The notes under the pieces are model-generated. The model was not told where the DNA came from. It did not search any database and worked only from the letters and a program-made list of their open reading frames with translations. From Victivallaceae bacterium (GTDB taxonomy: Bacteria; Verrucomicrobiota; Lentisphaeria; Victivallales; Victivallaceae), in assembly GCA_045657185.1 (NCBI GenBank), contig JAZOSO010000129.1, positions 1 through 55,396 of the forward strand: a DNA stretch of 55,396 nt, written 5' to 3'. Position numbers and translations under genes: made by a program. Below, in pieces: positions 6,021-32,345 of this stretch. The first letter of the stretch is position 1. Every line of letters starts with the position of its first letter.

Positions 6021-6089
6021 TTATATCTCCTTATCTGTTATAAAATAACCTTATAATTTTCTGGTTTCAGATCAAATTATTCATTATTT

Positions 6090-7880
6090 TCATTTTTCTG
6101 CGTCAGCAATTTTTTCAATTTCAATATGAATTTTCAAGCTGTTTGCTCCTTCGGCGGCAAATGTATCATAATGTCCGTTGCGATTGCGTGCAGGGCGTTT
6201 CAAATCTTTCAAAGTTCCGTCAGATACGGTATAACGACATACATAACCGTTAAAAATTACTTCAAGAACATTTTCTTTCAAAATAACTTCAGTATATTTT
6301 TCACCGTTAAATTTAAATACCGGAAGAAGACAGCATATTTTTTCGCCGCCGGAAACAGTAACATCCAATCCGTTTTTGTCAAGAACATATTTTGAAACAA
6401 GAGTTTTGCTGCCGAAAGTACATTCAATTTCAGATTGCGCAGTTTCTCCTGAAGCTGAATGAGATTTTATTTTATGTATAACATCTTCATCAACAGCATA
6501 TTTCCATTTGCCATTGACACAAATACCCGGCGCAACAGCAAGCGGAAACGGTTTTTTAATATCAATAATGTAGTGAGGTTTGGCGGGACACGGAGTACTG
6601 AGACACAATTCTGACGGTGCGCCTTTTTTGTGCAAACGCCCAAGTCCGCTGCAATCAAAAAGCGACTCTGCTCTATAATCATATTGCGCAAAATATTCGC
6701 CGCCCCTCATAAATAATTTATGAAAATCATCAGAAGTCTGCCATGTCATACCCTTGCAATCATCAAGTTCAGATGCAGGAACGGAATCATCACAAATCCT
6801 GTACGCCGCATAGAGAAAAGAGGCGGCAGTTATCATATATTTATCAAAATAAGCATACTCCTCACAGCCGTATTGCGAACTTACAGGGAAGCTGTTTTTG
6901 ATATGAGATATCTTTTTTTTGCTGAGCCATCCGGAAATATTCTGCAAAGCGCGTTGAACTTTGGCCTTGTATTGTCCTGCAGTATGCATATCGCCTTTTT
7001 GGGCAAAACGTTTGGCATAATATTCCAGCACTAAAATCACATGAGCTTCATTATGCAGAAATTGATTACTTCGTCCGCCGTACGGCATTTCACCGGTTAC
7101 TGACGGCATTTTCAATGTTGCAGAAGCCGACTTGTCAAGCGCGTCTTCCCAGATTTTTTTGTATTTGCCCTGATAACCTTCACTCAAAAGCAGAGCATAA
7201 AGTCCGCGGGTAACAAAATCATATACCATCGGGGCGCCGGGCTCACAATACATCATATTTTCGTCCAGGAAACGTATCTGCGAAAAAGCCTGCAAATCAA
7301 TGAAATCGCCGTACTTGTCAGCCAATCCGGCTTTCTGCCGCATAAATTCACTGAGCATGGTGAATGCCGCCCAGTTGTAAACGATATCTTCGGATTTCAC
7401 TGCATACACATTGTAACAGCTGTAAGGGTCAATCTGACTCAGCAATTTTCTCCATTCGGCTGTTTTTTCTGCATCAAAAACCTTACTTTTTTCCAGTTCC
7501 TGAATGCAGAAAATCACCTCTTTTACTGAAAAATCATTTCCGACAAATGGTTTTATGCCATGCTGAACTTTAAGAAATTCACGACAGCAAAGGTCCATCA
7601 TTTTAACAAATTGCTCTTTTAAATCAAGCCTTCTGCCGTGAGCAATCAAAATGCCGATATTAGCAGTCAAACGCGGATAACCGTGTTCCTTCAAGCCGTC
7701 AGACTTGACATCATTGTAATACTTGATTATATGCTCATTGCTATATGCCGCAAGAACTTTTTCCATCAACTCAATATAATATGACTTATCCATTTTTTTT
7801 GCCTTATTAACAGTTATTCCGCTTGCAGAGACAGTAACAAAAATAAAAAGAATAAGCAGCAATAAAATATTTTTCTTCAT
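6090..7880 (-). CDS. secreted protein of unknown family (helical N-half, beta-rich C-half; candidate polysaccharide lyase/hydrolase)
   Basis: 596 aa with a clear Sec leader (MKKNILLLLILFIFVTVSASG) and an AAGGGA RBS. It starts 13 nt downstream of the PHP gene. I recognised no diagnostic motif. Confidence 0.8.
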   Translation of the reverse strand: MKKNILLLLILFIFVTVSASGITVNKAKKMDKSYYIELMEKVLAAYSNEHIIKYYNDVKSDGLKEHGYPRLTANIGILIAHGRRLDLKEQFVKMMDLCCREFLKVQHGIKPFVGNDFSVKEVIFCIQELEKSKVFDAEKTAEWRKLLSQIDPYSCYNVYAVKSEDIVYNWAAFTMLSEFMRQKAGLADKYGDFIDLQAFSQIRFLDENMMYCEPGAPMVYDFVTRGLYALLLSEGYQGKYKKIWEDALDKSASATLKMPSVTGEMPYGGRSNQFLHNEAHVILVLEYYAKRFAQKGDMHTAGQYKAKVQRALQNISGWLSKKKISHIKNSFPVSSQYGCEEYAYFDKYMITAASFLYAAYRICDDSVPASELDDCKGMTWQTSDDFHKLFMRGGEYFAQYDYRAESLFDCSGLGRLHKKGAPSELCLSTPCPAKPHYIIDIKKPFPLAVAPGICVNGKWKYAVDEDVIHKIKSHSASGETAQSEIECTFGSKTLVSKYVLDKNGLDVTVSGGEKICCLLPVFKFNGEKYTEVILKENVLEVIFNGYVCRYTVSDGTLKDLKRPARNRNGHYDTFAAEGANSLKIHIEIEKIADAEK

Positions 7881-7893
7881 GTTTTCATCCCTT

Positions 7894-9291
7894 TTATTTA
7901 TTGAAAAAACATCTGATATAATCTGCTACATTATCATTTTCAAATTTGACAGCTTTGTTTGTACGCATGGAATTCAGCATAAGTATTCCCTCTGCTTTGC
8001 ATAATTCATCATGCTCCGGATAGAAGTTGCGCAGCAGAAAGTGAACATAACGCACCAGACGGAACGAACCTGAAACATGCGGAGCAATACCCGGTGAGTC
8101 AAAAGTCATAACTGCTGCGCAATTTCCTTTTTTAATTGCCTCCTGCAATGCTTCAAACGATGTATCTTCGGCAAAAACGACGGTAAATTTTGTCCCCAAT
8201 GTCAAATCCGCGTCATTGTGACTGTCGCTGTTGCCGACCACCGGCAGAAGTTTGCCGCAACGTATTACGGCGTCCTGATAAAAAGCCGCCCCGAGGTCAT
8301 TGGCTTCGCTGTATGAATAACTTTTGGAGTTGTTTTCAGCAACTGCCATACCGATAATTTCAACAGCATCGAATTTGCCCTGTTCAAGAATATAATCCCG
8401 TATCGGAATAGGCATATTGAACATATAATCCGACATCCAGCAGGGGTGACAGAAAAATGCCAACCCGCCGTATTCATGGATTTTTTCACAAATCCAATCT
8501 GCGCCCGCCATCAGATAGCGGACTTCAAAAGCGTACGGCAAATCTATTTTTTCCGCACGCGCAGTAAGCTCAGCACAAAGCTCCTCATAATGGTCATTGG
8601 CATAAGCAGAAACACAGCTGCTGCCGCCGAAATTCACTATATGTACATGCCCGAAAAACTGACCGTTACGGAAAAGAGTTTCATCATGTTTATAAGGCAA
8701 ATGACACTCTTCACCTTTAAAAACCTTAAATCCGCTGTTAAATTCAGCTCCGAATTCCGTCAAAGTTTCAGAACTTGTCATTTGTCTGTGGTCAGTCATG
8801 CAGATATAATCCAAACCGTTCCTGCGGGCGCATGCGGCAATATAACGCGGAAAATTTTCTTTATTTGAACAGTGGGAATAACTGCTGTGAACGTGCATAT
8901 CTCCTTTAAACGGAGTAAGTTCATAAAGGTCATCTTCAAGGATATAAATATCAAATTCACAGACAAGTTTGGTTATTGCAGAGTCAATCCCATCATCTTT
9001 GACAGTACCTATACGGCAATGATATTCCCCCTCATCCATGGCATCAATCACACACTTGCCGTAATCAGAAGAGTTGTCAAAAACAACAGGATATTTTCTG
9101 TAAATAACCTTGCGGCGGATGAGTTTGCCGTCAGAATAAATTCCGTTTCCGGCAAAAAGCACCAGATAAAGGACTTCATTTTCAGCAAATTGCTCAAGCG
9201 CAGTTTGAAAACTCCTGCCATTCAATTCAATTTCAAAGGGTTCTCCGGCCCGGAAAACCCTTGCATTAACATTATAAAAATCACTGAACAT
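7894..9291 (-). CDS. PHP-domain metal-dependent phosphoesterase (CehA/McbA-like) with an N-terminal beta-rich domain
   Basis: 465 aa. GDMHVHSSYSHCS is the classic PHP first motif (HxH), and later His/Asp-rich segments occur (MTDHRQ, HVHIV, FFCHPCW, GNSDSHN). No signal peptide. Confidence 0.8.
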   Translation of the reverse strand: MFSDFYNVNARVFRAGEPFEIELNGRSFQTALEQFAENEVLYLVLFAGNGIYSDGKLIRRKVIYRKYPVVFDNSSDYGKCVIDAMDEGEYHCRIGTVKDDGIDSAITKLVCEFDIYILEDDLYELTPFKGDMHVHSSYSHCSNKENFPRYIAACARRNGLDYICMTDHRQMTSSETLTEFGAEFNSGFKVFKGEECHLPYKHDETLFRNGQFFGHVHIVNFGGSSCVSAYANDHYEELCAELTARAEKIDLPYAFEVRYLMAGADWICEKIHEYGGLAFFCHPCWMSDYMFNMPIPIRDYILEQGKFDAVEIIGMAVAENNSKSYSYSEANDLGAAFYQDAVIRCGKLLPVVGNSDSHNDADLTLGTKFTVVFAEDTSFEALQEAIKKGNCAAVMTFDSPGIAPHVSGSFRLVRYVHFLLRNFYPEHDELCKAEGILMLNSMRTNKAVKFENDNVADYIRCFFNK

Positions 9292-9449: not shown

Positions 9450-12170
9450 TCACGGTTTGGCAACGAGAATAACTCTATCAGCAAAAACTTCATTATTTTC
9501 TGTAATTTTTACAGAAACAATTATCTGCCATTTTTTCTTGAGAGCGTCTGCACCTTTGGCGGCAACAGCTTTGCCTATCGGAAAAACAACATTCCAGCGA
9601 CCGCCGAAAAGAATGGAATCTGCATGCAGAACTCCGGGACGGGGCAGAGTATAAAGTTTGAACTCATTTTTCTTTGCAATTTTATAATTGATACCGAGAC
9701 TTGAACTGCCGTAATTTTTGGCTTTCTGATTGTACACACCGAAACCGTAAGCGGCTTTTTTGGTATCAATTTTTTCATACAGAGCTTTACCGCAGCTGCC
9801 GTCAGAGCAGTTCATAAGATTTTTTGCATTTTCGGGAGCTTCAATTATTATGACATCAGAGGCGGGAAGTTTTGCCAGATTTTCGGGAAGTGCTTTGGGC
9901 GGAATTTTAACTTTCTGCTGAAGAACGACACGGTCGCAAAGGACACGGTCTTTTTCAAATTTCAATGAAACATGAACGAGATATTCCTTGTCTGCCCCTG
10001 CGGCATCATCATGGAAAGCCTTGCTGCCGATACGGAAATTCAAGTTCCATGAACCGCCGAAAAGAATGGTCGGAGTGGTAAGTTTGACCGTACGCGGGAA
10101 AGTGTAAAAGTGATAGCCCTCCCCTTTAATCATAGACGGAGTAATGCCGATACCTGCACCGTATTTTTTGGTTGCGCTGTCATAAGTACCGAGAGTAAAC
10201 GGTTTTTTGCGGTTCCATTTTTCAGCGAAAGCTCTGCCGAGATTAGCGTCGGGGTCTTTGACAATAGTTGAACCGCTTGACGGTGCGAAATAGTCAAGGA
10301 TGTATTCGGGAGCGATGTTGGCAAGTTCAGCCGGAAGTTTTTTAGCTGAAGATGCGGCATAAATCTCTTTTTTCCAATTATTGAAATTTTTGAGAGTGGA
10401 ACGGACTTTGCGTTTGGCAATAAGTTCCTTGAAAATTGTCTCCATTTTTTCCAGACGGGCTTTGTGGTCAGTGTTGACCAATGCAACATAAGTGCTGTCA
10501 AAACCGAGACGGAGTGCGCGGACACGGAAGGCAAAATCACCGTCAACCGCTTTTTCCGCCTTATTGAGCAATTCATCAATCTTATTGAGAATATTTTTGG
10601 TCAGGAAAGGATAGTCAGCAGTATTGTAATACCAGATACCTCCTTTCTTGGTGAAAGCACGCATCTCTTTGGCAAGGATGTCGTGATATTCCTGAACAAA
10701 AGGAGCGGCTGCGCCGTAATAGGCATTTATGAATTTGCGGGTGAGTTTGTCAGTATCGCAGTCGGGATTCTGCATCAGTTTGAACATGATGTAGGTCTGA
10801 AGTTCAGAGAAGTTGGTACCGTTGGGGATACCGCCTGAGTCATGTTCGGTATAAAATCCTGCAATCCCCAAATCTCGCATAAGTTTGTAATCCGCAGCCA
10901 GACGGTCGGTCATAAAGGTCGGCGGCAATTCAAAATATTTGTCACGCTGACGGTTGTACGGATTGGGATAATACCAGAAAAGGATATCGGAAGTATATTT
11001 GCGCCATCCCTTGATTGCATTGTACTCAATGGTATTTTCCTTTGAAGTCAGAGGATTGGCGAAGTCGCCGTTGATGGGAGCGAAAATCAGAGCAAGATTT
11101 TTCGGCCATTTGACCGCTTTTTTAGGCGGAATCAATGACTGCCCGCGCTGATAAGCCATGGCACGGAACGGGATTTGCGGATTTCTTTCGGCGATTTCAC
11201 AAATGGCAAGCAGCATGGCAACACCGCGTGCGCCGTATTCATTATCGAGAGCAAGACAGGGTTTGCAGCAGCAGATACGGTTGTAAATGTCATTGGCACT
11301 GAGTTCAATAACACCGTTCAGACCGCTTTTGCCCTTGAGGAAATTGAAGTAAGTCTGAATATTTTTTTCCAATTCTTTTTTAAGTTCGGCATTAGTGAAG
11401 CAGAGCTGACGGTCGGGAACGCGTTTACCGTTCTCATCCATTGAGAACCATTCAGGATTAGTGACGAAATATTTCTTATCCTTAACGAAATCAAGAGCGG
11501 CATTCTGGATATAAGAATTTCTGTTTTTTACACCGGGAGGAATCAGGCGTGAAAACGAGTGAGCCTGCAAAAAGTCATATTCCAAAGCGGAAATGCCTTT
11601 TTCTCTGCCGGGGTGGCGCGGATGGTCGCCGCCGTTCAAAAGAATATTGCAGCGGTTGCGGTACATATAAAGTGATGAAACAGTATTATCAGCATAGAAA
11701 AAATTCATCATGCCGCGTTTGGGAAAAGCGTAACGGACGGAGGTTTTGCCCTTTTTGACCGCAAGGTCTGTTGCTGCGGGGATATGGCAATCGCCGTAAG
11801 CATTCAGAAACATGATGCCGAAATGATTTTCAAGCAATTCATAAACGGCAAAAAGATTGCCGTGCATACCGCCGCCGTAGAGACGGATATTGCCATCTTC
11901 GGCGTCAATTACATTTTCGTCCTGATGGATATTGGCGGCAGGACCGATAACGATTTTTTTACCGCTTGCGGTTTCAGCCACGGGAAGTTTGACTTTGGTC
12001 ATTTTTTCAATGAAAGTCTGCAATTCACGGGCGGCGAATTTATCAATTTCAGAAGCATTTTTATCAACAACGATAGTATAATCGCTTTTGCCGTTATTGA
12101 CGATTGAAATATCTTTTGCACAAAGGGCAAAAGCCGAACATATAATAAAAAGAATTGTAAAAAATCTCAT
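9450..12170 (-). CDS. secreted DUF4838-family glycoside-hydrolase-like protein with a duplicated C-terminal domain
   Basis: 906 aa with a Sec leader (MRFFTILFIICSAFALCA). The N-terminus IVNNGKSDYTIVVDKNASEIDKFAARELQTFIEKMTKVKLPV is the typical DUF4838 start. Two about 120-aa C-terminal repeats are described in the findings. Confidence 0.8.
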   Translation of the reverse strand: MRFFTILFIICSAFALCAKDISIVNNGKSDYTIVVDKNASEIDKFAARELQTFIEKMTKVKLPVAETASGKKIVIGPAANIHQDENVIDAEDGNIRLYGGGMHGNLFAVYELLENHFGIMFLNAYGDCHIPAATDLAVKKGKTSVRYAFPKRGMMNFFYADNTVSSLYMYRNRCNILLNGGDHPRHPGREKGISALEYDFLQAHSFSRLIPPGVKNRNSYIQNAALDFVKDKKYFVTNPEWFSMDENGKRVPDRQLCFTNAELKKELEKNIQTYFNFLKGKSGLNGVIELSANDIYNRICCCKPCLALDNEYGARGVAMLLAICEIAERNPQIPFRAMAYQRGQSLIPPKKAVKWPKNLALIFAPINGDFANPLTSKENTIEYNAIKGWRKYTSDILFWYYPNPYNRQRDKYFELPPTFMTDRLAADYKLMRDLGIAGFYTEHDSGGIPNGTNFSELQTYIMFKLMQNPDCDTDKLTRKFINAYYGAAAPFVQEYHDILAKEMRAFTKKGGIWYYNTADYPFLTKNILNKIDELLNKAEKAVDGDFAFRVRALRLGFDSTYVALVNTDHKARLEKMETIFKELIAKRKVRSTLKNFNNWKKEIYAASSAKKLPAELANIAPEYILDYFAPSSGSTIVKDPDANLGRAFAEKWNRKKPFTLGTYDSATKKYGAGIGITPSMIKGEGYHFYTFPRTVKLTTPTILFGGSWNLNFRIGSKAFHDDAAGADKEYLVHVSLKFEKDRVLCDRVVLQQKVKIPPKALPENLAKLPASDVIIIEAPENAKNLMNCSDGSCGKALYEKIDTKKAAYGFGVYNQKAKNYGSSSLGINYKIAKKNEFKLYTLPRPGVLHADSILFGGRWNVVFPIGKAVAAKGADALKKKWQIIVSVKITENNEVFADRVILVAKP

Positions 12171-12186: not shown

Positions 12187-12930
12187 TCAGAAGTGAATAG
12201 TTGAAGACGTACCTGAACATGCATTAAAATCTTTATCATAAACGGTAATATTGAATCCCGTTGTTTCTGCAGCATAAGTTGAATGTTTATATTCTTTCTG
12301 CACACTGATATAGAAATCTCTCGGATGACGGAATGATGCAACATGACCGTCAAGCATAACCTGATTCATAACATTTTCATGTATAAACATTACACGCGAT
12401 ACAGACTCAACGCTTTTGTGGATATAGAAATTTGAAGTCTGTGTTTTTGAATCATTTCTGCCGCTGTCAGTCCAGACAAACATATGTGAAGGTTCACGAA
12501 CAGCTTTTGCATTCATATACTGATGCTGCGGATTGGTACCTTTGACACCTACATGACGCGGCAATGCACTCCAGTGGCGTCCGCCGTAAGTCTGATAGCA
12601 GTTGATACTTGCGGGGTCGTCAGGGTCCACGGGTGCATACTTGAAAGGTGCAAGTGCAGGACAGATTGTAACATGCGGATTTTTACCCAAATATCCGTTG
12701 CTGATATACCAGCCAGCCCATTGCCAGTTGTTATCGTTTGTAAGAACCCAGCCTTCAAAATCACCTTCATAAATTGCCGTCATCATCCCGAGATTTTTCA
12801 AATTACCGACGCATTTTGCGGATCTGGCTTTTGCTCGTGCTTTGTTCAAGGCGGGCAGCAGCATACCTGCAAGAATGGCGATGATTGCGATGACAACGAG
12901 AAGTTCGATAAGTGTGAATTTCTTTTTCAT
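12187..12930 (-). CDS. prepilin-type N-terminal domain protein of the H-X9-DG family (pseudopilin-like)
   Basis: 247 aa. The N-terminus is [35 protein letters not shown]. The C-terminus carries [12 protein letters not shown], which is H-x9-DG. An AAAGGA RBS is present. Confidence 0.9.
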
Positions 12931-12954: not shown

Positions 12955-14610
12955 TTACAATTCATATTCTTTCAAGACCTGAGTAATTCTGCGCCATGCT
13001 TCTTTGGGGACACGATGGCTGTCAAGTGCGCCCTTGAAGTTGAAATTTCCGGCTTTGGTTTGAGCTGCACTGCCCGCAAATGTGCGTGCGTCGCAGAACT
13101 GCCAGATAAATGTGCCGCTGAAACGCTCATCTTCAATCACTCTGCGGACAAGTGCTTCATGCAGTTCTGCCTGATAATCTTCGCTCCAACGCTGACCGCC
13201 GCGAAGTCCCGGAATTGCTTCCGCTCCGACTTCACTTATAATAACAGGCTTATTTATATACTGTTCCTGTGAGGCAAATTCAACCAGACCGTCCATGACC
13301 CGTTTAAATTCGGTATGATTCATAAATTCATCTTCATTACCGCTGTACCAGCAGGGATAAGTATTGAATGAAATAACATCAGCGTATTCCAGACATACAT
13401 CTTTCTGTGCTTTGTCAGTGGCAAAAGTAACAGGAGTTGCAGGGTCAACTTCATGCAGAATATCCGCCAATGCTTTAACCAGCGGTTTGGCAGTTTCCAG
13501 ATGAGTTCCGGCTTCATTCAGAAATCCGCGCAAAATTATGCAAGGGTGATTGATTGATGCAAGAGCGGCTTTGCGGGTTTCGCGTTTTTGTTTCTCCTGA
13601 AAATCGGGGTCGGTCAGAGAAAATTCTCTATTGCCCCAGCCGAGAGATTCCTCCCAAATCATCACACCGGTACGGTCGCAAAGGTCAAGGAATTCTTCAC
13701 TCTGCGGATAATGCGAACCGCGGAAGCAGTTTCCGCCGAGCTGTTTCAAAAGCTGCAAATCCTGAACCATAACCGCTGTCGGCACTGCGTAGCCGAAATC
13801 AGGATGTGCATCATGACGGTTGTAACCGATAAGAGTAAGTTTTTTTCCGTTCAAATAAAGTTTACCGTTCTTTGCTTCAACTTTGCGGATACCGAAATTG
13901 CGTTCAAAAACGACCTCCCCGACTTTAATTGACGCATGATGAAGTGCAGGATTTTCGGGTGACCAGAGCTGAAATGCGGGAACTTTGAATTTTGCACTTC
14001 CCTGCCCTGCTGATAACGGCAATTTATTGACAATCAGAGAGTTATCAAAAACGATTTCAGCTTCACTGATATTTTTGATATCACCGTCAAAAATGCAGGA
14101 TATTTCAACTTCGCCGTTATCAATATTTGAAGTGATAATCTTTATTTCACGAGCGAAAACAGTTTCAGCACGTCTGATTACTACCGGACGGTAAATGCCG
14201 CCGTGTGCATAAAAGTCATAATCTCTGCGCCAGAGAGATGAATTACTGTCGTCAAATTGATTGTTTACTGCAAATATAAGTTCATGTTTTCCCTCAACTC
14301 CCGCATTGAAGCGGAAAGTATTTTTTGAGAAAGGAGCGTCGATTTCAGCAACTTTCTTTTTGTCCCAGTAAATATCCGCCCGCAACCCCAAACCTTCGGA
14401 ATAAAGCTCAATTTCACCGCCGACTTCAACAAAAGTCCGGTAACATCCCGTACCGCGCTGCAAAAAATATGTATGACCTGTATCAAAACACCCCGGCACT
14501 GCGGCAATATCATCAAAAATGATTTCCGCAACATCAATTTCAGCAAGCGATTTCCTGCAGAAATTAAAATCCCACATCGACGCCAGCGGGATTTGATTTG
14601 CTTTTTTCAT
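12955..14610 (-). CDS. glycoside hydrolase family 2 (beta-glucuronidase-like)
   Basis: GH2 TIM-barrel motifs are present: NRHDAHPDFGYA, IWEESLGWG, acid/base region RGFLNEAG and nucleophile region VIISEVGAEA. The track ORF runs to 14631, but the ATG at 14610 is preferred because AAAGGA lies 7 nt upstream. 14631 remains an alternative start. Confidence 0.88.
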   Translation of the reverse strand: MKKANQIPLASMWDFNFCRKSLAEIDVAEIIFDDIAAVPGCFDTGHTYFLQRGTGCYRTFVEVGGEIELYSEGLGLRADIYWDKKKVAEIDAPFSKNTFRFNAGVEGKHELIFAVNNQFDDSNSSLWRRDYDFYAHGGIYRPVVIRRAETVFAREIKIITSNIDNGEVEISCIFDGDIKNISEAEIVFDNSLIVNKLPLSAGQGSAKFKVPAFQLWSPENPALHHASIKVGEVVFERNFGIRKVEAKNGKLYLNGKKLTLIGYNRHDAHPDFGYAVPTAVMVQDLQLLKQLGGNCFRGSHYPQSEEFLDLCDRTGVMIWEESLGWGNREFSLTDPDFQEKQKRETRKAALASINHPCIILRGFLNEAGTHLETAKPLVKALADILHEVDPATPVTFATDKAQKDVCLEYADVISFNTYPCWYSGNEDEFMNHTEFKRVMDGLVEFASQEQYINKPVIISEVGAEAIPGLRGGQRWSEDYQAELHEALVRRVIEDERFSGTFIWQFCDARTFAGSAAQTKAGNFNFKGALDSHRVPKEAWRRITQVLKEYEL

Positions 14611-14649
14611 TTTAAAGTCCTTTATTTGCATTTTTTTAACAAATTTAAC

Positions 14650-14753: not shown

Positions 14754-15560
14754 ATGAAAAAGAAAACATTTACCGACTTTGAATTTTCATTGCGGATACC
14801 CAACAATATTTCAGCCTACATCCGTTCAGTCGGTCACTTCAATATCAAAGATATCCAAACCAACAGCATGTGGGAAAAAGCATATTTCGGCGAACTTTTC
14901 TGGTGCATTAACGGTAAAGGGGTATTCTATCTGGATGCTAAAAAATATATTGTCCGTCCCGGCGACATCTGGTATTATCCTGTCGGCAGTAAACATTTTT
15001 ATCATCCGCTTGATGACTATTTTCATTACAGATGGTTTACGATTGAAGGCGAGATGGCAGACTCTCTTTTCAAATCAGTAAACATTTCTCCCGGAATGAG
15101 TTACGGCGGCAAATGTCCTGAAGAACTTTTCGCGCGTCTGGAACTTGATATCAAACAAAGCACATTGAAAAAAAGATTGGAACTTCTCTCTGTCGGCTTT
15201 CAAATTCTATGCTGTGCCGCCGCAGGAGTAAAACAAAAACGCCCCGTCAACAATTATTTGTCCGAAGCCCGCTCAATCATGGATAACGATTTTACAAATT
15301 CAGAACTGAATATTCAAACTCTGGCAAAAATCCTTCATGTCAACCGCGTACAACTGAGCAGAGATTTTGCAACCCACTACGGAGTAACTCCGTCGGATTA
15401 CTTGAAAAATCTCCGTATCCAGAAAGCTGTAAAGTTACTGAAAACAAGCAATCTGCAGCTTAATGCCATCGCCTCCGTCTGCGGTTTCAATTCAGGAGCA
15501 TATCTCGGCAAAGTCATCGCCGCCGGCACAGGCAAAAAAAGTACCGAACACCGCAACTGA
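14754..15560 (+). CDS. AraC family transcriptional regulator (cupin sensor + HTH)
   Basis: 268 aa with an N-terminal cupin-like region (VRPGDIWYYPVGSKHFY) and a C-terminal AraC HTH (LAKILHVNRVQLSRDFATHYGVTPSDYLKNLRIQKAVKLL). It is divergent from the GH2 operon. Confidence 0.9.
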   Translation: MKKKTFTDFEFSLRIPNNISAYIRSVGHFNIKDIQTNSMWEKAYFGELFWCINGKGVFYLDAKKYIVRPGDIWYYPVGSKHFYHPLDDYFHYRWFTIEGEMADSLFKSVNISPGMSYGGKCPEELFARLELDIKQSTLKKRLELLSVGFQILCCAAAGVKQKRPVNNYLSEARSIMDNDFTNSELNIQTLAKILHVNRVQLSRDFATHYGVTPSDYLKNLRIQKAVKLLKTSNLQLNAIASVCGFNSGAYLGKVIAAGTGKKSTEHRN

Positions 15561-15565
15561 AAACA

Positions 15566-17276: not shown

Positions 17277-17306
17277 ATAGAAAGTCTCAAAAATAAGGAT
17301 TCTATT

Positions 17307-18281: not shown

Positions 18282-18319
18282 GACTTACTCCTGTTTTTTA
18301 TTTTTCCGGTATGGAGTAT

Positions 18320-18347
18320 AATATACACCGTTTTGTGAAAGTTTCAA
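18320..18347 (-). promoter_or_regulatory. sigma70-type promoter for the CBM48 gene
   Basis: On the minus strand: TTGAAA (18342-18347), a 16-nt spacer, then TATATT (18320-18325). Confidence 0.4.
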
Positions 18348-18363
18348 TTTTTTTCAGACTTTT

Positions 18364-23321: not shown

Positions 23322-23351
23322 GGCTGTGTTATAAAACTTTATAACACAGCC
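23322..23351. terminator. bidirectional hairpin terminator between convergent genes
   Basis: Perfect inverted repeat GGCTGTGTTATAAA / TTTATAACACAGCC (14-nt arms, tiny loop). Only modest T-runs flank it. Confidence 0.6.
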
Positions 23352-24528: not shown

Positions 24529-24571
24529 TTTTTTACCTTTTATATTATAAAATTTTTATATACAATATAAA

Positions 24572-25753: not shown

Positions 25754-25785
25754 TTTATACCTTTTAAAATTTTATGTTCGTAATA

Positions 25786-26943: not shown

Positions 26944-27654
26944 TTACTTATTCCAGTTGATGAAAGCCTGTTCGTCAACATGTTTGTTCCAGTTATTTGA
27001 AGTATTTCCCTCTCTCCAGCCTGTAATATTGCTGGTATCGCCTTTCCACCATTGTACGTGACCGTCAACAGAGAGGACATTTGCTCCGTTGTTATGCGGC
27101 AATTCCATACAATAATTTTCCCCAAGAAGAATAAACGGAGAGGAACCTCCGGGAGAGATTTTTTCAGACATTGACATTGTATCGGACGGACGTTTCAGTT
27201 TGGAAACCTGGCGTGCATATACGAACAACATTTCTTTTGTCTGATCTTTATTTTTACCGCCCGGCATACCATAATTAGTAGTACCGGCAAAAAGGTGTTT
27301 ATTGGCGGCACAGCGGTACGGCTTTCTGTTACCGATATAATAGTAAATTCTGGTAGGCCAACTATGATAATTTTTGCTTGATGTCGCCAAAAATGTCGGA
27401 TCTTCCGGTATCGCAGGTTCAGCCGGATTAAGGTCATCACTTTTTTTTGTATCTCCGTTTGCTCCCGGATAATATTCCTGATTATCAGCGGCATACTGAA
27501 CCAGTCCCAAGTTGAGCTGTTTCAGATTGGAGACACAGGAAGCCTGTCTTGCCTTGTCACGGGCTTTGTTCAATGCAGGCAAAAGCATACCTGCAAGGAT
27601 GGCAATAATAGCGATAACAACGAGCAATTCAATCAATGTGAAAGTCTTTTTCAT
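26944..27654 (-). CDS. prepilin-type N-terminal domain protein of the H-X9-DG family (pseudopilin-like)
   Basis: 236 aa. N-terminus [35 protein letters not shown]; C-terminal [12 protein letters not shown] (H-x9-DG). An AGGAG RBS is present. Confidence 0.9.
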
Positions 27655-27669
27655 ACCTTTTCTCCTGTT

Positions 27670-28386
27670 TTATTTATTCCAATTACAAAAAGCTTCATTC
27701 TGTAAGCGCATACTGTATTCAGGCTTGCTGCTATTAGGATTCGGCCATCCTTCTGCATCGCCGATTTCGCCCTTCCACCATTTTACATGACCGTCAACGT
27801 AGGAAGCATTTGCCCCGTTATTGTGCGGATGTGCAGTGATATAATAATTTTCACCCATAATGTACCATGAAGAACCGTCAAAATTTTTCTCGGAAAGCAC
27901 CATAGTTTCAGACGGGCGTTTGAGAGTGCGTATTTTTCTCGGCATATAAAAAAGGTCTCCTGCCAGTTTTTTTGATGCATCATAATTTGAACCTGCGACC
28001 ATTCCGTAATTGCATGTTTTTACCTTCAAAAACGGATTTGCATCACATTTGAAAACCTTGATATTGTTAACATAGTACCAGATACGGTCGGGATAACCGG
28101 GAGCCCATTCTTCTTTGCTGGCTTTTTTCAAAAATTCAGGAAATTCGGGAAGCGGAGCTTGCGTTTTTGGCATTCCCATACGCATACCGTCAAGAGCAGG
28201 ATACCAGTCAGCATTATCATCCTGATACATGGTAAGTCCGTTCTGAAGATTTTTCAGATTTGAGGTACATGAAGCCTGTCTGGCTTTGTCACGGGCTTTG
28301 CCCAATGCAGGCAAAAGCATACCTGCAAGAATGGCGATGATGGCGATAACTACAAGCAATTCAATCAGTGTGAAAGCCTTTTTCAT
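27670..28386 (-). CDS. prepilin-type N-terminal domain protein of the H-X9-DG family (pseudopilin-like)
   Basis: 238 aa. N-terminus [35 protein letters not shown]; C-terminal [12 protein letters not shown]. An AAGGAG RBS is present. Confidence 0.9.
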
Positions 28387-28397: not shown

Positions 28398-29681
28398 TTA
28401 TTGGTTGAAATCAGGTTTATCTGAGGTTATATCTTTCAAGGCAATATTGTTACAATTTTTAGTTCTGAATGAATACAAATATTTTTCACTGGCTTTTGAC
28501 CAGTCAATGCGGACTTTTTCAAAGCATGAGTCTGCAACCCACTCCAAATGGAATGCTTCGGGGGGAGCATTATTTCTGAAAGCCCGGTAAATTTCTTCTT
28601 CACGCACATCCTCACCGCCGGAATATTCAAAATTTACATTATTGAAATACAAACGCTTGAGCGGATAACCGGGATTTCCCTGAATAAGACTGCCCCAGAC
28701 AGCTTTGCCGCTGATATTGGTAAATTCAATATCATTCATGCGCTGATCTTCAGGTTCAACAGGACCGCTGGTACAGCTTTGCAAAAAGAACGGACGATTA
28801 CATTCCATAATAATATCATGGAATTTGATTTCACTGATATCCGCACCGGTATAATTGCCGTGTCCGTATTTACAGACTGCACAAATCGCAGTTCTGCTCT
28901 CATGGATGACAAGGTTTCCGAATTCAGCACGACGGATAATGCCGGAACCGACACCGACACGGATAGCGTTGCAGCAGGTTTTCAAAATGCAGTTGCTGAC
29001 CACCACATCTTCGCAAACACGGGTCTGGTCCTTGAGTTGTTTCAAGTCTGCACGCAGCGTGATACAGTCATCACCGGTATCAATAATGCAGTCGCTGACC
29101 GTTACACGGCGGCAGCAGTCAATGTCGATTCCGTCACCGTTGCGGGTGCGCCATTCGGTAAAAATTTTCAAACCTCTTGCACTGACATCTTCACAGCCGT
29201 GGAAAAGCAAACTCCAATAAGGTGCATTGACAAGTTCAACATCACGAACTGTAATATGGTCGGATTCAACAAAATAAATCATCTGGGCAGGACGCCATTT
29301 GTCAATTTCATATTTTCCGCTCGGCAGCGGTGTATGCTGGAAAAATTTGCGGCTGCCGTCAATCGTACCGTCACCGGAAATAACAACATGTGTAACTTCA
29401 ACACCGCAAATAAGATGCGCGCCTGAAGCCTCTTCATGCGGACGGGGACGATTCTGAACGCAGAAATCATCTGCATTGTAATCAGCGGGATTGCCGCTTG
29501 CGACAATTTTTGCACCCATTTCCAAATGCAGACCGCCGTAACTTTTCAAATACAGCGTACCTGTAAGATAAGTTCCGGGCGGGAAATTTACAACTCCGCC
29601 GGCATCAATCGCCCGCTGAATAGCAGCGGTATCCATTGTCACGCCGTCACCGACGGCACCGAAATCTTTTACATTTATCAT
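28398..29681 (-). CDS. right-handed beta-helix glycoside hydrolase, GH28-like with an atypical active-site region
   Basis: 427 aa. The N-terminus [29 protein letters not shown] is a pectate_lyase_3-type start. RNGDGIDID and DTGDDCITL correspond to the GH28 NTD and GDD motifs. No signal peptide. The ATG overlaps the upstream stop (ATGA). Confidence 0.75.
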
Positions 29682-31297
29682 TTATAAAGCTCCTTTAAAC
29701 CTTTTACTGTTGCATCTACAAGTTCCTGACCGCCTTTAGAGCTTACAGGACTCTGATTGAGTGTTGCGGAGTAACCGCGGTTTTTCTCTGCGCGAGCAAT
29801 CGGCAGATAACTGTGTGATTCAGTCATTTTATTTCTGTGTTTAATACCGGAAAGTTCAACGACAAAAGTCTGAACAAACGGACTTCTGCCCTGAATGCGG
29901 TGCATATAATCCATAAACAGCTCAAAAGCATTACTTGCAAATGCGATATCTCCGACACGGACAAGATTGGCTTCAGAAGCAAATTTTCCGCCTTTTTTGT
30001 AATGCTCTGCACGGGCAAGAGTCACTTTTGCGTTGTCGATTGCTTTGGTACGGTTGAAATTGAATTCGCCGCGTTCCATGAGAGTTCCGTCAGTTTTGTA
30101 CGGAACTTTTTTGTATTTTTCAAGAGTTGCCTTTGCTTTCGCCACTATATCAGCGGGAATCGGAGTGGGTGTAAGTTCAAGATTCAGATGCTTATAACGC
30201 AAAACGGCTTCGCTCTGTTTGGATTTTGAAGCCCATTTGAGAGTATCCTCAAAGATATTGACAATGCGTTCAGCCATATCCATGCACTGGGCCTTCTTGT
30301 ATGCAATAACCTTATCCCATCCTTCGGGCATACCTTCGTATGAACATGCTGCAGCGTAATCGTTCAGGATTTTTTCATCATATTTCATAGCGATACGGCG
30401 TTTCTCCGCCTCTTTGTAATGCACCTGGAAAGGTATTGTATCCCCTGCCCCTGAAACCTGCGGCAGAATATAAACTCCGGTATATTTCTTTTTGAAAATT
30501 TCACGGACATCATGCCAGAAATCGCTGGTATATTTTCTCATATGTCCTGAATACATTTGCGAGGTTACGGAAGCATTGATAATGCAGCCGGTCAATTTGT
30601 CATTCATATCGTATGTGAAAAGGAAATTCATGAAATTTTCAGAACCGCTTTCCCAGCCTTGAAATTTATCATCATCGGTTTTGCCGAGGATAACTGCGTG
30701 ACCGGCATGGGGAATTGTACTGCCGTACTGACCTTGGGGCCGTTTGGACAAATCATCAGCATAAACATTGCGGCGGTTGAAAGATGTTGCCCCCAAACCG
30801 TAACCGTAAGCAATTTTACCTTTTTTGCGGCTTGCCCATGCTTTTTTAGCAGAAATTACAACTTTTTCCGCAACAAAATCGCGAATGTCATCGCTATCCA
30901 TCAACCCCAAATCAGCAGGCACACCTTTCATCGGATAGTAAATGTTGATTGAACTGTGAGTATGGGTCGCATTGATAAAAAATCTGTCTGCCGGAAGTTC
31001 GGGAGCAATTTTTTTGGCAAGCTCACGAACTCTGCCGGGAATATCTCTGGGATTGATAATATCGAGAGAAACAAAAATAACTGATTCTTTGCCGTTGTCC
31101 AGCACAAGTGTTGTCGCATAAATCGGGTCAATAATCCCCTTTGACGGACGGAAATAACCGTAACCGGGCATGATACTGTTTTTTCCGGGGTCAATGGATT
31201 CCATTGCCCAGCCGATTTTCAGCGGAGCTTTTTGAGCAAAAGCCGAGATACATGCACCTATAACAGCACATACTAACAAAATTTTGTTTTTTTTCAT
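29678..31297 (-). CDS. secreted protein with a neutral-ceramidase-N-terminal-like domain
   Basis: The preferred start is MKKNKILLVCAVIGACISAFA (ATG at 31297, AAGGGA RBS); the track ORF extends to a TTG at 31339. The pattern GWAMESIDPG..MPGYG....SKGIIDPIYATTLVL...ESVIFVSLD...NATHTHS resembles the ceramidase N-domain (memory-based). Confidence 0.75.
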   Translation of the reverse strand: MKKNKILLVCAVIGACISAFAQKAPLKIGWAMESIDPGKNSIMPGYGYFRPSKGIIDPIYATTLVLDNGKESVIFVSLDIINPRDIPGRVRELAKKIAPELPADRFFINATHTHSSINIYYPMKGVPADLGLMDSDDIRDFVAEKVVISAKKAWASRKKGKIAYGYGLGATSFNRRNVYADDLSKRPQGQYGSTIPHAGHAVILGKTDDDKFQGWESGSENFMNFLFTYDMNDKLTGCIINASVTSQMYSGHMRKYTSDFWHDVREIFKKKYTGVYILPQVSGAGDTIPFQVHYKEAEKRRIAMKYDEKILNDYAAACSYEGMPEGWDKVIAYKKAQCMDMAERIVNIFEDTLKWASKSKQSEAVLRYKHLNLELTPTPIPADIVAKAKATLEKYKKVPYKTDGTLMERGEFNFNRTKAIDNAKVTLARAEHYKKGGKFASEANLVRVGDIAFASNAFELFMDYMHRIQGRSPFVQTFVVELSGIKHRNKMTESHSYLPIARAEKNRGYSATLNQSPVSSKGGQELVDATVKGLKELYK

Positions 31298-31360
31298 TTT
31301 TTCCCTTTTAAAATTTGAAATATTTTCTGACATTATCAAAAAAAAATTGTTATCAATATA

Positions 31361-31460: not shown

Positions 31461-31489
31461 TTGATTTTTTCAGACAATTATGCTATACT
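31461..31489 (+). promoter_or_regulatory. sigma70-type promoter (extended -10) for the AraC gene of locus 2
   Basis: TTGATT (31461-31466), a 17-nt spacer, then TGC-TATACT (31481-31489). The same TGCTATACTA decamer occurs at the locus 1 AraC promoter. Confidence 0.45.
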
Positions 31490-31514
31490 AAAACATAATC
31501 AAGGAGCCGATATC

Positions 31515-32345
31515 ATGGACGAAAAAAAATTCCCGAAAAGTTTTGCCTCATTACCGCAAATTCATTATATGGCATTAGCTGATTTTTCCCTGAATTACCG
31601 TGAAGAATGGCACAACTCACATTACAACGATTTGATATACATTATTTCAGGCAGCATGACTATAATTATGCCAGGTGTTGAAGAGTTGGAATACCCCGTC
31701 AATCAGGGCGAAGTTTTTCTGATGCAGAGCAATGTTAAACATAAAGATATTTTCAAGTTGCGCAAAGGGTTGAAAGCACTGGTTATTTCATATCTCTGGG
31801 ATGGTGACAAAGACTATCTGCCGCCGGAAACTCCGTTCCGTAAATTTGCAGCTGATGAACTGCTCGAAGTGCGCTGGATTCTTGAACGTATCCGTGAAAA
31901 CTCTATCGGAACAAAACCGAAATCAGATATTTCTTTTATCCAGCAAAGCCGCCTGCATACAATATTACTGCTGCTGTACAACCTCATGAACGACAATTTC
32001 ATTGAGCGTCAGGACAGAGTATTGACATACAGACCCGAATCTTTGCTTAAAGCTGCGCAATACTATATCCAATGCAATTATGCCACTCCGAAACTCAACC
32101 GCACACAAGTCGCTAATGCACTGTCCGTGAGTGTAGCAACACTCACACGGGCATTTGACCGCTGTTCAGGCTATTCCTTTGTAGAGTATTTGACCAATGT
32201 CAGACTTGAAGCTGCACAAAGAATGCTGCGCAACCGCAGCTGCCGTGTCAGCGAAGCCGCAATCAACTGCGGTTTTACCGATGCCGGCTATTTTACCAGA
32301 GTGTTCAAAAAAGCTTTCGGAGTCTCCCCGATAGACTTTCGCTGA
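31515..32345 (+). CDS. AraC family transcriptional regulator (cupin sensor + HTH)
   Basis: The ATG at 31515 lies 7-8 nt after an AAGGAG RBS; the track ORF starts at an upstream TTG. The C-terminal AraC HTH reads VANALSVSVATLTRAFDRCSGYSFVEYLTNVRLEAAQRML ... GFTDAGYFTRVFKKAFGVSP. Confidence 0.9.
   Translation: MDEKKFPKSFASLPQIHYMALADFSLNYREEWHNSHYNDLIYIISGSMTIIMPGVEELEYPVNQGEVFLMQSNVKHKDIFKLRKGLKALVISYLWDGDKDYLPPETPFRKFAADELLEVRWILERIRENSIGTKPKSDISFIQQSRLHTILLLLYNLMNDNFIERQDRVLTYRPESLLKAAQYYIQCNYATPKLNRTQVANALSVSVATLTRAFDRCSGYSFVEYLTNVRLEAAQRMLRNRSCRVSEAAINCGFTDAGYFTRVFKKAFGVSPIDFR

Follow-up and report, generated by a model that had tools for sequence, protein, structure and literature searches.

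The window analyzed here, a 55,396-nt stretch of DNA considered as a whole, carries three pseudopilin-like genes that lie inside two enzyme operons (Table 1). The source organism is an uncultured gut Lentisphaeria bacterium. All three open reading frames (ORFs) were found on the minus strand where a sequence-only reading of this DNA had placed them, together with the N termini and H-x9-DG strings that it quoted, and six-frame translation revealed no other pilin-type N terminus in the window. The two tandem copies, paralogs 1 and 2, share 52% identity. Each pseudopilin ATG is preceded at a distance of 7–9 nt by a strong Shine-Dalgarno sequence (AAGGAG or AAAGGA), and paralog 2 additionally has an in-frame stop codon six codons upstream of its ATG, which supports the assigned starts and hence the four-residue leaders.

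Table 1. Pseudopilin genes and the surrounding operon features, in window coordinates
Feature	Position	Strand	Remarks
PD40-repeat protein	4815-6020	-	remainder of operon 1
596-aa protein, no assigned family	6090-7880	-	remainder of operon 1
PHP / CehA-McbA-type metallohydrolase	7894-9291	-	remainder of operon 1
DUF4838 protein	9450..12170	-	906 aa; signal peptide; PF16126, E = 4.4e-45; 16 bp downstream of paralog 3
H-X9-DG-type pseudopilin paralog 3	12187..12930	-	247 aa; leader MKKK; in the second enzyme operon (operon 1)
GH2 glycosidase	12955..14631	-	first gene of operon 1; PF02836, E = 5.1e-37; no obvious signal peptide
AraC-family regulator (operon 1)	14754..15560	+	PF12833, PF02311; divergent; 122-bp shared intergenic region
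Terminator-like hairpin	23322..23351	-	13-bp stem, then T-rich tail; closes operon 2
Three paralogous SGNH/GDSL esterases	25786-26934, 24572-25753, 23359-24528	-	signal peptides; PF13472, PF00657
H-X9-DG pseudopilin paralog 2	26944..27654	-	236 aa; leader MKKT; tandem copy of paralog 1
H-X9-DG pseudopilin paralog 1	27670..28386	-	238 aa; leader MKKA, then FTLIELL
GH28 rhamnogalacturonidase / polygalacturonase-like	28398..29681	-	PF00295, E = 2.4e-23; no obvious signal peptide
553-aa signal-peptide protein (unk553)	29678..31339	-	first gene of operon 2; conserved pseudopilin partner
AraC-family regulator (operon 2, assigned by position)	31461..32345	+	PF12833, E = 1.5e-22; divergent; 121-bp shared intergenic region

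The arrangement of AraC-flanked enzyme operons described earlier was borne out: the pseudopilins are internal genes, and an AraC-family gene diverges from each operon. In operon 2, which holds the tandem pair, the spacing between consecutive genes runs from a 4-bp overlap (between the GH28 gene and the gene upstream of it) to 43 bp. Specifically, paralog 2 is separated by 15 bp from the preceding gene and by 9 bp from the next, and the SGNH trio follows directly downstream of the pair, with intergenic gaps of 9, 32, and 43 bp. In operon 1, a 24-bp gap separates the GH2 gene from paralog 3; the genes at 4815..9291 were assigned to this operon by their same-strand position and spacing. From its position, the AraC gene at 31461..32345 is the putative regulator of operon 2. 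The 553-aa protein that opens operon 2 had no match in Pfam, NCBIfam, or the PDB sequences, and the nearest NCBIfam model to the GH28 protein was rhamnogalacturonidase BT4146 (129 bits, below its cut-off). Most enzymes of the two operons have Sec signal peptides; since the GH28 and GH2 proteins do not, not every co-encoded enzyme can be cargo of a type II secretion system (T2SS). Scanning the window against Rfam and for tRNAs returned nothing.

The proposed DUF1559 / H-X9-DG pseudopilin identity is backed by both profile and motif evidence. All three proteins passed the cut-offs of PF07963 (N_methyl; 30.2 bits for paralog 1 and 21.5 and 21.4 for the other two; cut-off 21.2) and TIGR02532 (30.1, 21.9, and 21.8 bits; cut-off 16.3). 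For PF07596 (DUF1559; cut-off 23.3), paralogs 1 and 2 passed (26.9 and 35.6 bits) and paralog 3 fell below (18.1 bits), while for TIGR04294 (H-X9-DG; cut-off 19) paralog 1 passed (24.6 bits), paralog 2 failed (16.4 bits), and paralog 3 gave no match. The window proteins are short family members that match only the first 29–87 of the 268 PF07596 model positions, and all three align over their full length with the H-X9-DG / DUF1559 family in a 70-member alignment. This family is very large: a word-index search returned at least 7,992 homologs, and there are 235,460 representatives at 50% identity with an E-value of ≤1e-3, or 46,914 at ≤1e-10. One family cluster member is named "type II secretion system protein" by the NCBI pipeline.

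The bare pattern H-x9-DG occurred 11 times in the six-frame translation of the window and is, therefore, without significance by itself. The 70-member alignment, however, shows no variation at H188 and G199 and a conservation of at least 90% at D198 and H200, indicating that the true motif is H-x9-D-G-H; paralog 3 aligns with this H...DGH motif despite having no TIGR04294 match. At the other end, each protein has an MKKx start, i.e., a basic hydrophilic leader, followed by a hydrophobic stretch with Glu at +5, and the F, T, L, and E of the N-terminal motif are invariant in 70/70 aligned members. Codons 5–28 of the three genes differ by 7–12 synonymous and zero non-synonymous changes. Strict purifying selection thus acts on F+1 and E+5 and, more generally, on the helix and the first 28 mature residues. 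Gene conversion as the source of the identical N termini was ruled out by the 7–12 synonymous differences in 24 codons. The heads diverge to 23–30% identity on an invariant stalk.

The AlphaFold2 (AF2) model of paralog 1 (pLDDT 89.9) predicts a lollipop with a helix at residues 7–57 and four to six strands, and the best PDB matches of the full model in Foldseek were the full-length type IV pilins PilA (8tj2) and FimA (3sok), both weak (E = 0.065–0.09). The head-only model (pLDDT 83) matched no solved structure at E < 1, and the family profile matched none of the PDB sequences. By hhalign, the family aligned to Lentisphaerota GspG with 98.9% probability (E = 1.5e-17) over the N-terminal ~95 columns only; the three window proteins gave partial matches to TIGR01710 (49, 41.7, and 28.2 bits; GspG cut-off, 88.85) and none to the T2SSG head model PF08334. 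Profile comparison thus indicates that homology to GspG, the major pseudopilin of the T2SS, is confined to the N-terminal half.

The leader peptides depart from published rules in both length and sequence. By the rule now in force, position −1 is occupied by Gly or Ala (PMC10191384), and bacterial prepilin leaders, whose published lengths range from 6 to 26 aa, have been described as "invariably" Gly-ended (PMC4471445). The leaders in the window are 4 aa long in all three proteins and end in Ala, Thr, and Lys in paralogs 1, 2, and 3, respectively. All three had been counted as exceptions at −1; because the rule reads "Gly or Ala," this holds for the MKKT and MKKK proteins and not for the MKKA protein. 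Leaders in the family are as short as 3–4 residues, their −1 residues include Lys, Thr, His, Arg, Pro, and Phe, and Lys or Arg predominates at −2 and −3. Orthologs that are at least 90% identical bear unrelated leaders (MKKA, MKKY, MKKT, MKKS, or MKINLKKHDRNNIIGSC). In the Lentisphaerota-type "LLPAL" subgroup (n = 167), 19 different residues occupy −1 (Gly, 14%), whereas −1 in the Armatimonadota-type "LFPVF" subgroup (n = 80) is exclusively Gly or Ala (Fisher p = 1e-23). A −1 census based on genome-contig loci was dropped, as its scan pattern, MKKAFTLI, was skewed toward Ala. Among bona fide GspG proteins of Lentisphaerota, Gly occupied −1 in 0/115 (P29, S27, A16, H15, N13, and others); in Proteobacterial-type GspG, it did so in 117/117. 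The leader and position −1 are entirely without constraint, a trait that the window proteins share with Lentisphaerota GspG, and the missing Gly is not peculiar to the window paralogs.

The reported absence of a secretin, assembly ATPase, platform protein, and prepilin peptidase from the window was upheld by Pfam scans and by tblastn with PilD. The Pfam scans covered the 44 main ORFs of ≥150 aa that do not lie inside a longer ORF, a set outside which falls a 156-aa ORF (15463-15933) overlapping the AraC gene; the tblastn query was an approximate Pseudomonas aeruginosa PilD sequence. Across the loci examined (loci rather than whole Lentisphaerota genomes), this query found homologs in Elusimicrobia and CPR loci only and no prepilin peptidase in the Lentisphaerota loci. 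Lentisphaerota relatives do encode gspF-gspG, with the true gspG following DUF6941-gspF, and none of four Lentisphaerota loci has an A24 peptidase at a distance of 10 kb or less from its gspF-gspG operon. Two other candidates for the peptidase were rejected. The gene for an Rce1-like CPBP protease immediately follows gspG and a gspH-like gene in locus L008 but is missing at that position in Oligosphaera ethanolica and L088 and lies 7.5 kb away in L090. DUF6941, whose gene keeps its place upstream of gspF, is a soluble protein of 155 aa rather than a membrane protease.

The absence of a nearby A24 peptidase, the sub-range leader length, and −1 residues such as Lys, Thr, His, Arg, Pro, and Phe, which no characterized prepilin peptidase is known to accept (PMC10191384), would all suit proteins that are never cleaved. 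Such proteins would be bitopic signal anchors of the inner membrane with a periplasmic head, might serve, e.g., as tethered chaperones of the enzymes or bind these enzymes or their products, and would never enter a filament. We regard this explanation as unlikely: a plain anchor needs neither an invariant Phe+1 and Glu+5 nor 24 codons with synonymous change only, and GspG, which must polymerize for type II secretion, shows equal freedom at −1. The drift in leader length and sequence between near-identical orthologs fits a discarded peptide, though it would also fit a functionless tail. Of the two consequences that had been drawn from the non-Gly −1 residue, a non-canonical peptidase or no cleavage, the former is thus the better supported, and the idea of a simple membrane anchor is the weaker. 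Taken together, the sequence comparisons favor a lineage-wide prepilin processing that would be indifferent to −1 over anchor-only proteins. A literature search returned no report that connects Lentisphaerota with either the processing of prepilins or the function of H-X9-DG proteins.

We further examined related loci for recurring gene orders. A recurrent Lentisphaerota architecture consisted of a regulator (AraC, LacI, or GntR), one or two pseudopilins, and a large signal-peptide protein (L002, L005, L013, L030, L084, L088, L095, L096, and L097). DUF4838 genes are also neighbors of pseudopilin genes in L030 and, on either side, in L002, and LacI-type regulators are found in L095 and L096, with the first residues of the upstream gene in L030 also being LacI-like. 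At another chromosomal site, L094 contains a divergent AraC gene followed by unk535, a pilin gene (91% identical), and an SGNH gene (88% identical to SGNH2); the product of the gene preceding this orthologous pilin is 78% identical to the 553-aa protein of operon 2, and the flanking AraC protein is 63% identical to that at 31461..32345. The core of 553-aa protein, pilin, and SGNH esterase is, therefore, a case of conserved synteny, and this pilin-plus-enzyme core relocates between chromosomal sites as a unit. Pilin-enzyme co-diversification was considered and rejected: at the present sampling depth, the pilins next to DUF4838 genes are neither mutual best matches nor each other's nearest relatives and so give no hint of it.

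An enrichment of CAZyme genes near pseudopilins, which the sequence-only reading had led us to expect, failed to appear. In Pfam counts over the same 13 loci, recognizable CAZymes made up 4 of the 46 genes lying no more than two positions from a family member and 5 of the 63 genes farther away; this test is weak because many neighbors have no Pfam match. Only DUF4838 (3 near versus 0 far) and sugar regulators were recurrent near pseudopilins, the latter comprising GntR in 3/46 near genes and at least one AraC, while no family recurred among the far genes listed (families for 25 of the 63, with single regulators possible). The missing CAZyme excess, the enormous family size, the frequency of tandem duplicates (e.g., in the window and L088), and the presence of several members amid housekeeping genes (L093, L052, and L003) are what one would see if these were generic, largely redundant pseudopilins, scattered by duplication through CAZyme-rich genomes, adjacent to hydrolase genes mostly by coincidence, and without any locus-specific role. 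This view appears distinctly unlikely, however, given that the genes lie inside rather than between operons, with gaps of 9–24 bp to their neighbors, that the core shared with L094 has been kept across strains despite relocation and the gain of other genes, and that sugar-type regulators (the GntR, AraC, and LacI-type genes noted above) recur directly upstream. Proteomic co-induction in Verruconatronum alginivorum (PMC13274419) also speaks against it.

The proximity of sugar regulators could also be taken as a sign of glycan capture, as could the hypervariable heads on an invariant stalk. In such a scheme, modeled on SusD, the heads, carried on a pilus-like fiber along its length or at its tip, would bind the target polysaccharide and bring it to the cell, replacing SusC/D-type capture in PVC bacteria; pilin-based precedents exist in the Sulfolobus bindosome (PMC4471445) and the Akkermansiaceae MUL2 pilus (PMC13174399), and Kiritimatiella is without TonB/Sus-type uptake (PMC5148204). 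The SusD-like role originally suggested for these proteins was not corroborated, as the head has no likeness to SusD and searches of the window for SusD/RagB (Pfam), solved structures, and TonB-dependent transporters were all negative. More broadly, the head resembles no lectin, CBM, solute-binding fold, or other solved structure; Pfam scans found no transporter gene, including ABC transporters, in either window operon; and hhalign ties the family to the secretion pseudopilin GspG, in line with the NCBI name. Glycan-capture subunits are, therefore, an explanation to which we give little credence.

The reading that we prefer, with somewhat less than even confidence, is that the three proteins are GspG-derived DUF1559 / H-X9-DG pseudopilins that are co-expressed with the enzymes of their operon, processed, and used as locus-specific subunits of a T2SS-type machine. 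Under this proposal, each pseudopilin would be expressed from within a sugar-regulated operon alongside secreted glycan-degrading enzymes and inserted into the inner membrane by its class III signal anchor. A Lentisphaerota prepilin-processing activity would then remove the short basic leader before Phe, reading the basic −2/−3 residues and the hydrophobic helix rather than −1. The invariant alpha-1N helix would allow the mature subunits to be taken up by a shared T2SS-type machine (gspF-gspG and partners), and the variable heads of the locus-specific subunits may link that machine with the enzymes expressed alongside them, so that these pass through the secretin and/or are held at the surface. 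A broader joint reading, which we put forward only tentatively and consider rather doubtful, is that Lentisphaerota have dropped the Gly/Ala(−1) rule altogether, and that either a re-specialized A24 peptidase, which like archaeal PibD would read the basic −2/−3 residues, or some other enzyme acts on the core T2SS pseudopilin as well as on a very large number of H-X9-DG pseudopilins encoded at individual loci, resulting in a modular "one machine, many heads" secretion or display of the enzymes of each operon.

Lentisphaerota, with no Gly at −1 of the essential T2SS pseudopilin in any of 115 sequences, offer a clean natural exception to the rule stated in reviews, and one through which substrate recognition by prepilin peptidases becomes directly testable. 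That rule is built into software for finding pilins and into HMM names such as "GFxxxE," and searches by motif are, therefore, probably missing pilins in this phylum. With tens of thousands of clusters at 50% identity, DUF1559 / H-X9-DG is among the largest families without a known function and dominates the paralog lists of Planctomycetota, Verrucomicrobiota, and Lentisphaerota; the operon-level hypothesis names partner genes for it. Locus-specific pseudopilins would bear on cargo recognition by the T2SS and on polysaccharide handling without SusC/D in PVC bacteria, and "one machine, many heads," if true, would be the PVC counterpart of the Sus paradigm of Bacteroidota.

Among known systems, GspG/PulG (TIGR01710, PF08334) shares with the window proteins the class III-type N terminus, F+1, E+5, the N-terminal helix, and the start of the alpha-beta loop, and the Lentisphaerota GspG also shares the loss of Gly at −1. 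In contrast to GspG, the window proteins are 90–100 residues longer, their C-terminal half, with H-x9-DGH and a conserved Cys pair, does not align, and their genes sit with GH28/SGNH and GH2/DUF4838 genes instead of beside gspF. The window proteins match the Planctomycetota DUF1559 / TIGR04294 families by HMM and motif, and those families likewise have large paralog numbers; Planctopirus limnophila has 68 DUF1559 / H-X9-DG paralogs, two of which are essential (PMC10632474). In V. alginivorum, a member of another phylum (Verrucomicrobiota), the pulG-like pseudopilin pgaptmp_000050, with 67 paralogs in the genome, is encoded within a lyase cluster that alginate induces, and the proteome shows induction of another pseudopilin on alginate as well; its authors propose general T2SS export only and leave the leader undiscussed (PMC13274419). 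By its published description, this protein is likewise a pseudopilin within a polysaccharide-degradation cluster.

The Sulfolobus solfataricus bindosome resembles the window system in placing a pilin-type N terminus on nutrient-acquisition proteins and in relying on type IV filament machinery. The bindosome subunits themselves belong to the ABC-type solute-binding proteins, and their genes accompany those of ABC transporters, whereas the window heads are small and have no PDB profile or structural match, and their loci contain no ABC transporter gene. The bindosome comprises sugar-binding proteins with class III signal peptides and the Bas assembly system, and the archaeal −1 rule is also relaxed (PMC4471445). 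Modular and minor pilins share with the window proteins the concept of an invariant stalk and a variable functional head: Streptococcus sanguinis PilB and the PilA-PilC glycan-binding complex are described as pilins with grafted functional modules, and the MUL2 type IV-like pilus of Akkermansiaceae is an example of a pilus that a PVC bacterium requires to forage on glycans (PMC13174399). These pilins are encoded in pilus-biogenesis loci, with one set per machine, and MUL2A is archaeal-type and belongs to another family; here, in contrast, the paralogs number in the hundreds and are dispersed among enzyme operons. Finally, the window proteins have no lipoprotein signal, SusD fold, or SusC partner, and what they have in common with SusD of Bacteroidota polysaccharide utilization loci is solely the genomic logic, i.e., one variable non-enzymatic component per regulated locus.

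The three pseudopilin-like reading frames named by the sequence-only reading proved exact in coordinates, strand and quoted sequence, and six-frame translation of the window recovered pilin-type N-termini in these three genes only. Their annotated ATG starts appear credible, since a Shine-Dalgarno-like AAGGAG or AAAGGA lies 7-9 nt upstream and, at the 26944 gene, a stop codon stands six codons ahead of the ATG. All three carry H-x9-DG 35-60 residues before the C-terminus; the bare pattern has 11 chance occurrences in the six frames of the window. Alignment of 70 family members revealed that the motif His and Gly are invariant, that Asp and the next His are at least 90% conserved, and that a Cys pair (C40, C114) is conserved too. 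No secretin, assembly ATPase, platform protein or prepilin peptidase turned up in the window, either by Pfam among the main ORFs (≥150 aa) or by tblastn with PilD. The window comes from an uncultured Lentisphaeria bacterium, whose protein clusters bear NCBI names of ruminant-gut MAGs.

Genes, operons and gene orders in the window and at other bacterial loci (L numbers; those from L002 to L097 in the last seven rows are Lentisphaerota or PVC); a slash marks the end of the leader
Feature	Coordinates (strand)	Description
Pilin 1	27670-28386 (−)	238 aa, MKKA/FTLIELL...
Pilin 2	26944-27654 (−)	236 aa, MKKT/F...
Pilin 3	12187-12930 (−)	247 aa, MKKK/F...
Operon 2	31339 to 23359 (−)	seven genes, gaps from 4-bp overlap to 43 bp
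Operon 2, gene 1	29678-31339 (−)	553-aa signal-peptide protein
Operon 2, gene 2		GH28, nearest model rhamnogalacturonidase
Operon 2, genes 3 and 4		pilin, pilin (tandem)
Operon 2, genes 5-7	23359-26934 (−)	three SGNH esterases with signal peptides
Operon 2, terminator	23351-23322	13-bp stem
Operon 2, regulator		AraC gene, divergent, 121 bp between
Operon 1	14631 to 4815 (−)	GH2, pilin, DUF4838 (signal peptide), PHP-type metallohydrolase, two proteins annotated without function; divergent AraC gene
596-aa operon protein	6090-7880 (−)	
Fourth SGNH/GDSL esterase	21169-22326 (+)	
DA1-like gene	22323-23315	peptidase-like
GlnA-ClpB gap ORFs	17268-17666 (+), 17946-18281 (−)	small
L008 gspG	12297-12761 (−)	PF08334 102.6 bits, ...RRHHC/FTLIEIM...
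L008 gspH-like gene		...QQHS/FTLIELL
L008 CPBP protease	10859-11638 (−)	Rce1-like, intramembrane
L090 CPBP protease	18006-18776 (+)	Rce1-like
DUF6941, L081 (O. ethanolica)	8220-8687	
DUF6941, L088/L089	L088:8288-8722	
DUF6941, L090	8256-8726	
L094 pilin	7001-7753 (+)	
L096 repeats	1841-6274	two pilin + 179-aa repeats, then 802-aa and 921-aa proteins
L002		DUF4838 - pilin - DUF4838
L030		regulator - pilin - DUF4838
L005, L013, L084		GntR - pilin - large secreted protein
L088		pilin - pilin - GH109-like - GH123/LamG
L095		LacI - sugar isomerase-like - pilin - CBM9 protein - GH63
L096		LacI - (pilin - 179 aa) x 2 - large unknown proteins
L097		pilin with SASA esterase, sulfatase, LamG nearby

Among HMMs, PF07963 and TIGR02532 scored above their cut-offs in all three pilins, PF07596 (DUF1559) in two of the three and TIGR04294 (H-X9-DG) in one, and we assign the genes to the DUF1559/H-X9-DG family, which is already known and functionally uncharacterised (PMC10632474). 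Homologues numbered more than 7,992 among the matches listed by a word-index search, while an exhaustive search counted 235,460 representatives (50% identity) at E ≤ 1e-3 and 46,914 at E ≤ 1e-10. Profile-profile comparison matched the family to bona fide Lentisphaerota GspG (98.9% probability, E = 1.5e-17), but the alignment is confined to the N-terminal helix and the beginning of the alpha-beta loop and leaves out the C-terminal half. AlphaFold2 predicted a pilin-like lollipop (pLDDT 89.9; helix 7-57, then beta-sheet), with the motif Asp-Gly at the turn of the last beta-hairpin; Foldseek with the full model returned only full-length type IV pilins, as weak matches, and neither the head-only model nor the sequence profile matched anything in the PDB. 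Because the GspG alignment is partial, the score against the GspG equivalog model is far under the cut-off and the head is unmatched, we classify the window pilins, although homologous to GspG, not as GspG orthologues but as pseudopilin paralogues derived from GspG, whose head is structurally uncharacterised. Paralogue heads are hypervariable (23-30% identity, 52% inside tandem pairs) on an invariant stalk. Two 277-aa members of the 26944-gene cluster (P0174, P0175), starting MKK(F/S), have a disrupted transmembrane helix and so resemble copies that were frameshifted or pseudogenised in other MAGs.

Bacterial prepilin leaders have been described as ending 'invariably' in Gly (PMC4471445) or in Gly or Ala (PMC10191384). 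We took a census of position -1, the last leader residue, in 256 family members selected independently of the leader. The 'LLPAL' subgroup (n = 167), which includes the genes of the window along with named proteins of Lentisphaeria and Oligosphaeraceae, showed 19 residue types (G 23, S 20, H 18, R 18, A 16, F 10, K 9, plus others), whereas the 'LFPVF' subgroup (n = 80), in which the named members come from Armatimonadota and Abditibacteriota, had G 63, A 17 and nothing else (Fisher p = 1e-23). Positions -2 and -3 were mostly Lys or Arg. Orthologues at least 90% identical to the window genes begin MKKA, MKKY, MKKT, MKKS or MKKK, or instead have leaders of 16-17 residues, unrelated to these, whose last residue is Cys, Ser or Asn; the pilin of L094, a related strain, is 91% identical to pilin 1 in its mature part and has MKINLKKHDRNNIIGSC (17 aa), preceded by a good ribosome-binding site, in place of the 4-aa MKKA. 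Short and long leaders alike turn up repeatedly among the paralogue clusters, the long type loosely conserved as MK.xLxKHD...I(G/V)(S/N/C). Phe+1, Thr+2, Leu+3 and Glu+5 are invariant in 70/70 aligned members, and 7-12 of codons 5-28 differ among the three window genes, every change being synonymous. The signal outside position -1 is under strict constraint.

The same freedom extends to core GspG. At the Lentisphaeria locus L008, gspF is followed by a true gspG and a gspH-like gene, and this GspG has 118 scorable homologues, which are named GspG proteins from Lentisphaeria, Victivallales, Oligosphaeraceae and the cultured species Oligosphaera ethanolica; their position -1 was P 29, S 27, A 16, H 15 and N 13, more rarely C 5, Q 4, R 3 and G 3. 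The three sequences with Gly are the remotest matches, and two of them (P0327, P0328) belong to a proteobacterial-type GspG group, its named members being Proteobacteria, that has Gly in 117/117; Gly is therefore found in 0/115 of the Lentisphaerota-type clade (L008 gspG; P0211-P0326). Leaders in Lentisphaerota GspG are long (mostly 11-16 residues) and Arg-rich. Type II secretion requires GspG polymerisation. Since a polymerising GspG is equally free at -1, the missing Gly is no evidence that the H-X9-DG paralogues in particular are mere anchors, as the sequence-only reading had allowed. CPR and Elusimicrobia pilins (L070, L079, L035, L037, L042) commonly have Ala or Ser, also Gly, at -1, and those of L070 and L079 adjoin canonical PilD homologues; Ala(-1) is thus ordinary and the strict-Gly rule already loose outside model organisms, while the Lentisphaerota spectrum is out of the ordinary.

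These data are explained most economically if processing of class III signal peptides has changed throughout the lineage, so that the processing step would recognise basic -2/-3 residues and the hydrophobic helix and ignore -1. This is reminiscent of archaeal PibD. Alternatively, prepilins may be cleaved nowhere in the phylum, which would accord with the lack of an A24 peptidase within 10 kb of gspF-gspG in four Lentisphaerota loci; altered processing remains the more economical. The CPBP protease genes, directly after the gspG and gspH-like genes in L008 and 7.5 kb from gsp genes in L090, are probably linked by coincidence, because none occupies this position in O. ethanolica or L088. Immediately 5' of gspF, a gene for a soluble protein of about 145-180 aa (DUF6941) is conserved in the three Lentisphaerota gsp loci for which Pfam annotation was precomputed (L081, L088/L089 and L090).

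In the window, the 553-aa protein is a conserved partner 5' of the pseudopilin; neither it nor the 596-aa protein matched Pfam or NCBIfam, and the former had no match among PDB sequences either. The SGNH esterases and GH28 suggest acetylated pectin or rhamnogalacturonan as target. The four SGNH/GDSL paralogues span 382-393 aa; in the (+)-strand copy, which is followed by the DA1-like gene, and in SGNH2 the GDSL match starts at about residue 110-135, leaving the N-terminal stretch unmatched, and in the other two it is confined to the C-terminal part of the profile. By eye, aspartate 1-decarboxylase (PanD) is suggested for one of the two GlnA-ClpB gap ORFs, and a carbohydrate-binding (AMPK beta/CBM48-like) module for the other.

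The L094 pilin has an orthologue of the 553-aa protein (78% identical) on one side and an SGNH esterase orthologue (88%) on the other, and an AraC orthologue (63%) adjoins them. Compared with operon 2, GH28 and the second pilin are missing here, a GH123-like gene has been added, and the operon occupies the chromosomal position held in the window by operon 1; the pilin therefore travels with its enzyme partners as a unit. The L094 operon (unk535, the 553-aa counterpart, then pilin, SGNH and GH123) adjoins 5'-3' exonuclease, DUF1015 and MntP genes, and the same site in the window (1944-14631) has the unrelated GH2-pilin-DUF4838 operon instead. Apparently, entire operons of pilins and enzymes are exchanged at one fixed place in the chromosome. 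Some pseudopilin paralogues may have a dedicated partner in the 179-aa protein of L096, which had no Pfam match.

Of the proposed coupling of pilins to their loci, the regulator-pilin-secreted protein theme recurs, but CAZyme enrichment is unproven, because a crude census of recognisable CAZymes showed no excess (4/46 genes within two positions of a pilin versus 5/63 further away) and the association is not universal; members at L093, L052 and L003 lie in housekeeping or mobile contexts. Only DUF4838 (3 vs 0) and sugar regulators were recurrent near pilins. An invariant stalk, hypervariable heads and operon-internal genes beside Sec-exported enzymes fit a model in which one shared machine would use many locus-specific pseudopilin subunits. 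Tentatively, and at slightly below an even chance, we suggest that locus pilins couple a shared T2SS-type machine to their operon's enzymes, for secretion or surface retention; glycan capture by the pilin heads, an uncleaved tethered periplasmic protein and generic redundancy of pseudopilins are each less favoured than such coupling. The interpretation of the sequence-only reading is partly supported overall, and mechanism beyond sequence and synteny is what we infer.

Published support comes down to a single proteomic study, which placed a pulG-like pseudopilin with 67 paralogues inside an alginate-induced lyase cluster of a verrucomicrobium (PMC13274419); 28 'secretion system' proteins of a planctomycete are also reported to increase on fucoidan (PMC11685898), many of which we suspect to be DUF1559. 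In a literature search with most subscription journals outside its reach, neither the leader anomaly of Lentisphaerota nor operon-level linkage of the H-X9-DG family was found described; what appears new here is that the Gly/Ala(-1) rule is broken across the phylum, combined with operon-embedded, cassette-like deployment. The earlier analogy to SusD does not hold in any structural sense. Functional analogues are the Sulfolobus bindosome (PMC4471445), the modular minor pilins of Streptococcus sanguinis and the Akkermansiaceae MUL2 pilus (PMC13174399).
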